Part shown: positions 50,577 through 50,917 of the stretch, piece by piece | Layout of the letters: every line of letters starts with the position of its first letter | How positions within the stretch are numbered: the first letter of the stretch is position 1 | Assembly: GCF_013315695.1 (NCBI RefSeq) | Contig: NZ_CP054353.1 | From: Escherichia coli | Lineage (GTDB): Bacteria > Pseudomonadota > Gammaproteobacteria > Enterobacterales > Enterobacteriaceae | DNA: 64,000 nucleotides | Direction: 5' to 3' (one strand) | Notes under the pieces: model-generated | The model's database searches: none | What the model saw: only the letters and a program-made list of their open reading frames with translations | What the model was told of the DNA's origin: nothing | Position numbers and translations under genes: made by a program

Positions 50577-50917
50577 CGCTGCTCCTGTTATTTGTCGTTC
50601 ACCTTACAAAATGAAGAAAGAGAATCTTCACTTTCATTTTGAAAGCAAACTAGCACAGCAAAAGCGGCAAAAAGCGTGATGCATGTCGAATATCATCAAA
50701 ATAACTTACAAAAAATAACTTAATTTGTTTTTTACTTTGTAAGTGAAACCAATGACACCTCTGCATAAATATGAATATATTCATTTATTTTTCAATGTAT
50801 TAAGCTATTTTCGTTGCGATTTTTGACCCATGATTTTCTTTTCGAATTGTCGATATTATTGAAGGGTAACTTTCAAAGAAAAATACAAGGGGCTATAGTG
50901 TTACGCATTAAAGGCCA

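Follow-up and report, generated by a model that had tools for sequence, protein, structure and literature searches.

The 341-bp sequence separating tagY from tagR (50577-50917; 32% G+C) in the window, which is the whole 64-kb stretch of Escherichia coli DNA analysed here, is the divergent Ptag/Preg control region of a D-tagatose utilisation locus, in which the repeated word CTTACAAA would probably serve as a half-site for the DeoR-family repressor TagR, the predicted boxes O1 and O2 as its main operators, and the candidate boxes O3 and O4 as auxiliary operators. The regulation of the tag genes was described in E. coli Nissle 1917 by Park et al. (2025, Microb Cell Fact 24:158; PMC12226905), and a literature search found no later paper on TagR. 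The control region and its tagO1/tagO2 reading are already known from that work, of which the present analysis is a modest extension; the finding is mostly ordinary, because CTTACAAA is the strong half of the predicted TagR box. What is added here is cross-genus support for the predicted tagO1, tagO2, and CRP site, the rejection of an inner hairpin, the recognition that the third copy of the word is allele-specific, and three hitherto unnamed candidate boxes, which are called O3, O4, and Oreg.

The window contains an eight-gene islet (44219-52715) between accC and yhdT-panF-prmA, which is, by gene content and synteny, the D-tagatose utilisation locus tagYABCDE/tagRK. The minus-strand genes of the islet encode an aldose 1-epimerase, a sugar kinase (tagatose kinase in NCBIfam), an ABC permease, an ABC ATPase, a periplasmic binding protein, and a class II tagatose-bisphosphate aldolase. 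The aldolase gene, tagY (49722-50576, minus strand), named in PMC12226905, is the first gene of tagYABCDE and was identified as encoding tagatose-1,6-bisphosphate aldolase by its RefSeq annotation and a 529-bit match to the NCBIfam GatY/tagatose-bisphosphate aldolase model. On the plus strand, tagR (50918-51748) encodes a DeoR/GlpR-family repressor, as assigned by Pfam, NCBIfam, and RefSeq and by reporter evidence in PMC12226905, and is cotranscribed with tagK (51780-52715), which encodes a second sugar kinase. TagR and its homologues have an N-terminal HTH_DeoR domain (PF08220) and a C-terminal DeoRC sugar-phosphate-binding domain (PF00455) in Pfam, together with NCBIfam matches to the DeoR/GlpR family. 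Single deletion of tagD, the tagatose kinase gene of the operon (45262-46224), abolishes growth on tagatose (PMC9720028). TagK is 51% identical to TagD and scores 346 bits against the NCBIfam tagatose-kinase model, for which the cut-off is 420. As DeoR-family regulators usually respond to sugar phosphates, TagK may not be redundant but may instead produce the true inducer or perform the second phosphorylation.

The tag locus was reported in Nissle 1917 and phylogroup B2 strains by Ha et al. (2022; PMC9720028), according to whom ~95% of phylogroup B2 E. coli carry the tagatose islet, including extraintestinal pathogenic and adherent-invasive strains and the probiotic Nissle 1917. Of 5426 complete E. 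coli genomes, 1421 contain the 341-bp intergenic region, with 94.7-100% identity, and the window copy is 95.6% identical to that of Nissle. As in E. coli, the locus lies directly upstream of yhdT (DUF997)-panF-prmA in Enterobacter-like, Klebsiella spallanzanii-like, and Serratia aquatilis genomes and in several metagenomic contigs (seen downstream of tagK in L012, L013, L015, L016, L017, and L021); the Yersinia and Sodalis tag loci have different neighbours. A neighbourhood common to several genera fits an old residence with loss as well as it fits repeated horizontal insertion, and neither an integrase nor a tRNA was found near the tag locus. The genome matching the window most closely has, downstream of the islet region, an IS1A element with acrS on one side and a truncated acrF pseudogene on the other (L001, 17688-18385). 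The two loci of Klebsiella spallanzanii type (L009, at ~3484-4000, and L015) have no tagY beside the promoter; their O1 box is followed by a leader of ~240 nt and then tagA.

The original prediction of a divergent control region next to a DeoR-family repressor gene is borne out by the literature, since this region is the published Ptag/Preg region, and the promoters, start sites, and CRP site of the Nissle tag locus, which has the same intergenic region, map on the window base for base. The start sites determined by dRNA-seq, 64 nt before the tagY ATG and 11 nt before that of tagR (PMC12226905), were transferred to positions 50640 (minus strand) and 50907 (plus strand), respectively. The published Ptag (50647-50673, minus strand) has the -10 element TAGTTT at 50652-50647 and the -35 element TTTTTG at 50673-50668. 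Preg (50872-50907, plus strand), for which a promoter scan was combined with the dRNA-seq start, has the -35 element TTCAAA at 50872-50877 and the -10 element TATAGT at 50894-50899. The CRP site predicted in PMC12226905, CGTGA-N6-TCGAA, is at 50675-50690, centred at 50682.5 (~-42.5), and matches the CRP consensus at 7 of 10 positions.

The predicted TagR operator tagO2, CTTACAAAATGAAGAAAGA, lies on the plus strand at 50603-50621 with its centre at ~+31 of Ptag; it contains the box CTTAC-AAAAT-GAAGA and is identical to the published operator in 19 of 19 positions. The other predicted operator, tagO1, published as CTTTCAAAATGAAAGTAAA, lies on the minus strand at 50627-50645 and agrees in 18 of 19 positions, the single difference being G for A at position 17; its core (50631-50645) is a perfect palindrome, CTTTC-N5-GAAAG. 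The arrangement is that of PMC12226905, with tagO1 over the Ptag start at 50640 and tagO2 alongside on the opposite strand. In the experiments of that paper, plasmid-borne tagR shuts off a Ptag reporter, tagatose induces it, and glucose represses it, and the induction of tagRK is only ~2-fold. The paper names two operators only, its alignment comprises four sequences, and its operator model is labelled a working hypothesis by its own authors; no block is named at 50698-50719, at 50729-50749, or over the Preg -35 element.

The repeats pointed out in the original prediction are all present in the window, two of them with slightly shifted coordinates. The word CTTACAAA occurs at 50603-50610, as proposed, and at 50705-50712 instead of 50705-50713, and its reverse complement TTTGTAAG at 50736-50743 instead of 50737-50744. 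The inverted repeat TGAAGAaagagaaTCTTCA is found at 50612-50630, and the arms in which it was said to be nested, CAAAATGAA (50607-50615) and TTCATTTTG (50633-50641), do pair; this outer repeat extends to 13-nt arms (50603-50615 and 50633-50645) with 92% complementarity. It follows from the coordinate mapping that copy 1 of CTTACAAA and the outer palindrome are the published tagO2/tagO1 pair. Two variant copies, absent from the original prediction, both read CTTTCAAA, one within tagO1 and the other over the -35 element of the tagR promoter.

Four matches to CTTACAAA occur in the 64-kb window, three of them inside the 341-bp region. Some 8-mer is found at least three times in 24% of local dinucleotide shuffles (8.6% without low-complexity words); the exact-word triplicate is thus unconvincing alone, and a degenerate word and a box model were used. 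CTTWCAAA was observed 5 times in the 341 bp against 0.11 expected, a count reached in none of 1000 shuffles, and its enrichment was also found in most orthologous regions. With the half-site model CTTWC-N5-GWAA[AGC], requiring a match of at least 9/10, the 341 bp yielded 5 sites where 0.27 were expected (a count reached in none of 2000 shuffles), and the distal part alone 3 sites where 0.16 were expected (P = 0.0015); these enrichment figures are descriptive because the model was defined after seeing these sequences, and P values throughout overstate independence, since the orthologues share ancestry. The only 10/10 match in the 64 kb is the tagO1 core, 50631-50645. The TagR box can be roughly described as inverted half-sites CTTWC-N5-GWAAR with an A-rich spacer, for which the full form would be CTTWCAAAAYGAAR, and CTTACAAA would then correspond to the strong half-site plus the A-rich spacer of this predicted box. 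With a 15-bp matrix derived from the O1 and O2 boxes of 10 lineages, tagO2 scored 23.0 bits, copy 3 12.0 bits (local shuffle P ~0.009), the Preg box 1.6 bits, and copy 2 -0.8 bits. A full-box reading of copy 2 and the Preg box in E. coli was rejected with this O1/O2 matrix, as only the half-site model fits them.

Conservation was examined in orthologous tagR loci from a divergent E. coli (E69), Superficieibacter, two Enterobacter species, three Trabulsiella, Klebsiella spallanzanii, Serratia aquatilis, Yersinia, Sodalis, Izhakiella, and several metagenomic contigs, among which TagR identity falls from 92% to 56%; two diverged loci were added, one from Lelliottia (regulator 37% identical) and the other a PTS-type locus from K. 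pneumoniae (57%). The Ptag side was aligned for 17 regions, thinned to 14 lineages, and scored as the mean majority fraction. In this alignment, conserved islands of 0.90 for O2 and 0.86 for O1, 0.76 for the Ptag -10 hexamer, and 0.81 for the -35 hexamer stand among intervening spacers of 0.48-0.65, and the CRP half-sites reach 1.00 for the invariant CGTGA and 0.87 for the other half. The left half of O3 scores 0.92 and its flank 0.87 next to spacers of ~0.5. The O4 columns (0.63) and the spacer between O2 and O1 (0.59) are at background. The comparative islands support the published elements far more broadly than the four-sequence alignment of PMC12226905. The motif search in orthologous islets that accompanied the original prediction had a mixed outcome when it was run: tagO1, tagO2, and copy 2 are conserved, the exact word of copy 3 is allele-specific, and the arms of the inner repeat are variable. 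The proposal that the repeats are candidate operators for the adjacent DeoR-family repressor is supported for copy 1 and the outer repeat, which are the near-invariant predicted tagO2/tagO1; the inner palindrome is unconserved and the copies are not equal.

The second copy of CTTACAAA lies in the block AAAATAA-CTTAC-AAAAA-ATAAC (50698-50719, plus strand; centre 50712, ~-72), which was singled out by its conservation and spacing as the candidate auxiliary operator O3, a name given here. The sequence AAATAA-CTTWCAAAA at copy 2 is as conserved as tagO1 and tagO2, and the block was found in 15 of 17 orthologous regions, including those of Serratia, Yersinia, and Sodalis, where it reads CTTTCAAAACGTAAY. 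O3 lies upstream of the CRP site at a centre-to-centre distance of 28.5-29.5 bp in 13 tagR-orthologue regions and the two diverged loci, and the latter, in Lelliottia and K. pneumoniae, have their own CTTTC box at the same distance from the CRP site in the opposite orientation or with a different sequence. A good full box, CTTTCAAAACGTAAC, with a 10/10 half-site match, occupies this place in distant orthologues. In E. coli, the right half of O3 is degenerate (CTTAC-AAAAA-ATAAC), and the length of the A-run ranges from 5 to 7 among alleles, which would alter the half-site spacing; copy 2 is therefore called a candidate weak auxiliary TagR operator. The Enterobacter BIGb0383 lineage has neither O3 nor O4. 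A direct repeat, AAAATAACTTA, occurs twice with 14-bp spacing at 50698-50722, flanking and overlapping copy 2. The extended word ATAACTTWCAAA is common to copy 2 and the Preg box only, being absent from tagO1 and tagO2, and this flank may mark a distinct sub-class of sites. An IHF site was considered at 50694-50710 and set aside, as the consensus did not fit when checked by eye.

The third copy, TTTGTAAG at 50736-50743, lies in the candidate O4 position (50729-50749, ~-96 to -102), where two overlapping 9/10 boxes were found, CTTACAAAGTAAAAA on the minus strand and CTTTGTAAGTGAAAC on the plus strand, the latter resembling the Serratia-group O1, CTTTCCAAGTGAAAC. The exact word is present in none of seven other E. 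coli alleles, chosen to cover the identity range, of which six read TTTGCAAG and one TTTACAAG, and the divergent E. coli E69 reads TTTATAAA. The 34-bp haplotype around copy 3 was found in 2 of 5426 genomes, and the window thus differs from the locus of the Nissle paper in being a rare allele with an exact third CTTACAAA. Most E. coli alleles have a perfect 15-bp palindrome, TCACTTtgcAAGTGA, at 50730-50744, from which the window allele departs by carrying T at both 50731 and 50740; these two changes improve one minus-strand half-site and weaken the other. The three copies, which had been listed together, are of different standing: copy 2 has a conserved left half at a fixed position and a degenerate right half, and copy 3 is exact only in the window allele. 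Among the orthologues, 9 of 15 lineages have a box scoring 9/10 or better whose centre is 20-34 bp past O3, each with local-shuffle P ≤0.015, and the boxes at this position vary in register and orientation from lineage to lineage, a pattern that suggests turnover with a fourth box maintained. In the Klebsiella spallanzanii-type loci, the second upstream box has a direct rather than an inverted orientation (CTTACAAAATGTAAT, then CTTACAAAACAAAAG).

Two other sequences beyond copy 3 were noticed in the region. A CRP-like sequence, AGTGA-N6-TGACA (50742-50757, ~-110 of Ptag), matches the consensus at 8/10 positions, compared to 7/10 for the published CRP site, and was rejected, being unconserved among E. 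coli alleles and other genera and poorly positioned relative to either promoter. A perfect 12-bp palindrome, TGAATATATTCA, at 50772-50783 in the unconserved middle of the region coincides with promoter-like consensus matches on both strands; it is present in most E. coli alleles and absent from other genera, and the dRNA-seq study reports no start site there (PMC12226905).

On the Preg side, the candidate autoregulatory box Oreg, CTTTC-AAAGA-AAAAT (50870-50884, plus strand), starts with CTTTCAAA (50870-50877) and lies over the -35 element. ACTTTCAA occurs at Oreg in 19 of 20 regions, the Preg -10 element TATAGT is invariant in all 20, and in Serratia/Yersinia-type orthologues Oreg is a perfect palindrome, ACTTTCAATTAGAAAGT (ACTTTC-AATTA-GAAAGT). 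The location of this box over the -35 element, together with its near-invariance, suggests that tagR could be autoregulated, which fits the reported ~2-fold induction of tagRK. Alignment near Preg also revealed a degenerate box of low confidence, CTTTTCGAATTGTCG, at 50838-50852 on the plus strand, which in E69 and Enterobacter-group relatives reads [AT]TTTCAAAAYG.

The inner inverted repeat of the original prediction, TGAAGA-N7-TCTTCA (50612-50630), had been put forward as an operator candidate, a claim that fails because the repeat is unconserved even within E. coli. As an element it was rejected, since its arms differ among E. coli alleles and across all other genera: the right arm reads TCTTTA in Nissle 1917 and TATTCA in an O111:H8 strain, and orthologues beyond the typical E. 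coli alleles all have CGAAGA, with C for the first T, together with a different right arm. In the window allele, the right half of O2 (GAAGA) faces the flank of O1 by chance, which is how the repeat comes about; it was judged incidental. An alternative role for the nested palindrome, as a hairpin in the 5'-UTR of the tagY leader affecting mRNA stability or translation, can be given very little credence. The leader downstream of the start at 50640 can indeed form a 10-bp hairpin of -10.1 kcal/mol, but this energy is no better than that of shuffled sequences (z = -0.23), 76 of 200 of which fold equally well, and none of 15 consensus pairs shows a compensatory change across 9 orthologues. Moreover, the inner arm of the nested palindrome is unconserved, and five bases of the 5' arm (50641-50645) are located upstream of the mapped start. 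In an Rfam search, no family reached the threshold, the best E-values being 0.26-0.38, far below gathering scores. A cis-regulatory leader RNA or riboswitch was thus rejected on the absence of covariation, of an energy excess, and of an Rfam match.

The distal copies of CTTACAAA could also be explained as functionless A/T-rich words that arose by chance, with tagO1 and tagO2 as the only operators. The frequency with which some 8-mer reaches three occurrences in local shuffles (8.6-24%), the allele-specific copy 3 in columns at background, the -0.8 bits of copy 2 with the full-box matrix, and the one lineage lacking both distal boxes are all in line with this explanation, which is nevertheless unlikely in light of the conservation of copy 2. 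Its left half (0.92) and flank (0.87) stand out between unconserved spacers, its spacing to the CRP site is fixed in 15 of 15 regions compared, two of them diverged loci, and 9 of 15 lineages have a further box past it. Conservation of this kind would also be expected if the copy-2 block (50698-50719) were functional in a way that does not involve TagR, such as an α-CTD/UP-like contact upstream of a class II-like CRP site or the binding of another protein to DNA, to which we assign a still smaller probability. The block is A-rich and directly upstream of the CRP site (~-58 to -79), its right half in E. coli misfits the O1/O2 box, and the ATAACTTWCAAA flank is common to the Preg box and not to O1 or O2. 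Against such a function, the conserved core, CTTWC followed by AAA, is the same strong half-site as in O1 and O2, distant orthologues have the full box CTTTCAAAACGTAAC with a 10/10 match, and the diverged loci of Lelliottia and K. pneumoniae keep their own box at the same place.

Under the preferred reading, in which TagR acts through O1 and O2 as main operators and O3 and O4 as auxiliary ones, TagR would occupy the two strong convergent boxes 28 bp apart in the absence of tagatose. TagR bound to tagO1 over the start site would occlude RNA polymerase, and TagR bound to tagO2 at ~+31 could act as a roadblock or as a cooperative partner. O3 (~-72) and O4 (~-96 to -102), upstream of the CRP site, are most likely auxiliary operators, which might stabilise an oligomeric TagR complex or a loop across the CRP site and the promoter, and the half-box over the Preg -35 element could confer weak autorepression of tagRK. 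For induction, tagatose or, more likely, a phosphorylated derivative, which is the usual kind of effector in the DeoR family, would release TagR, and CRP-cAMP would then activate Ptag. The operator assignments, looping, autoregulation, and effector identity are what the authors of PMC12226905 or we infer.

The tag region was likened to the aga regulon in PMC12226905, and AgaR is, like TagR, a DeoR-family repressor encoded divergently from an operon of a tagatose-bisphosphate-aldolase pathway. The aga and tag regions are also alike in having several T-rich, CTTTC-containing sites and a CRP site; AgaR sites, however, repeat TTTC directly, in contrast to the inverted CTTWC-N5-GWAAG of the TagR box. 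The operators of AgaR in the E. coli K-12 aga regulon were reportedly defined by Ray and Larson in 2004 (cited in PMC12226905). The 24-bp AgaR consensus was taken as WRMMTTTCRTTTYRTTTYNYTTKK; as a positive control, it gave 6 matches in the aga promoters of K-12, where 0.01 were expected, and it gave none in the window at up to 3 mismatches. TagR is 31% identical to K-12 AgaR and scores 107 bits with the NCBIfam AgaR model, for which the cut-off is 260, but its helix-turn-helix and recognition-helix region closely resembles that of AgaR. TagR was rejected as an AgaR orthologue on its 31% identity and a score far under the model cut-off; the likeness of the helix-turn-helix, set against that missing match and the low model score, makes TagR AgaR-like in its working and not an AgaR system.

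Multi-operator repression with an auxiliary operator upstream of a CRP/CAP site is familiar from lac (O1/O3) and from deo (O1/O2/OE), which is bound by octameric DeoR. The tag region resembles these systems in a strong operator at the start site, weaker ones upstream of the activator site, and a regulator from an oligomeric family; the centres of O1 and O3 are 74 bp apart, ~7 helical turns. It differs from them in that TagR looping or cooperativity is purely inferred. A layout of the DeoR/GlpR type was found, with repeated half-sites, O1 over the start site, and the Preg box over the -35 element, and the paired boxes, 28 bp (O2/O1) and 24-30 bp apart, flank the promoter and the CRP site. As a further extension, all five boxes might belong to one system, in which the O2/O1 and O3/O4 pairs bracket the promoter and CRP site, the CRP-to-O3 spacing being strictly conserved at 29 bp, and the fifth box lies on the tagR promoter, leading to loop-type or anti-activation repression combined with autoregulation, with TagK possibly making the phosphorylated inducer. 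This five-box reading, absent from the published model, is a tentative one, to which we give somewhat less than an even chance.

For basic biology, the tag region represents a routine sugar operon controlled by a repressor and CRP. Its practical interest comes from the development of Ptag/TagR as a tagatose-inducible expression switch for Nissle (PMC12226905), as anyone engineering a minimal promoter that is also tight needs the full operator set. Should the conserved upstream box and the Preg box prove real, more leakage would be expected from a shortened Ptag cassette, and TagR would limit its own dosage.
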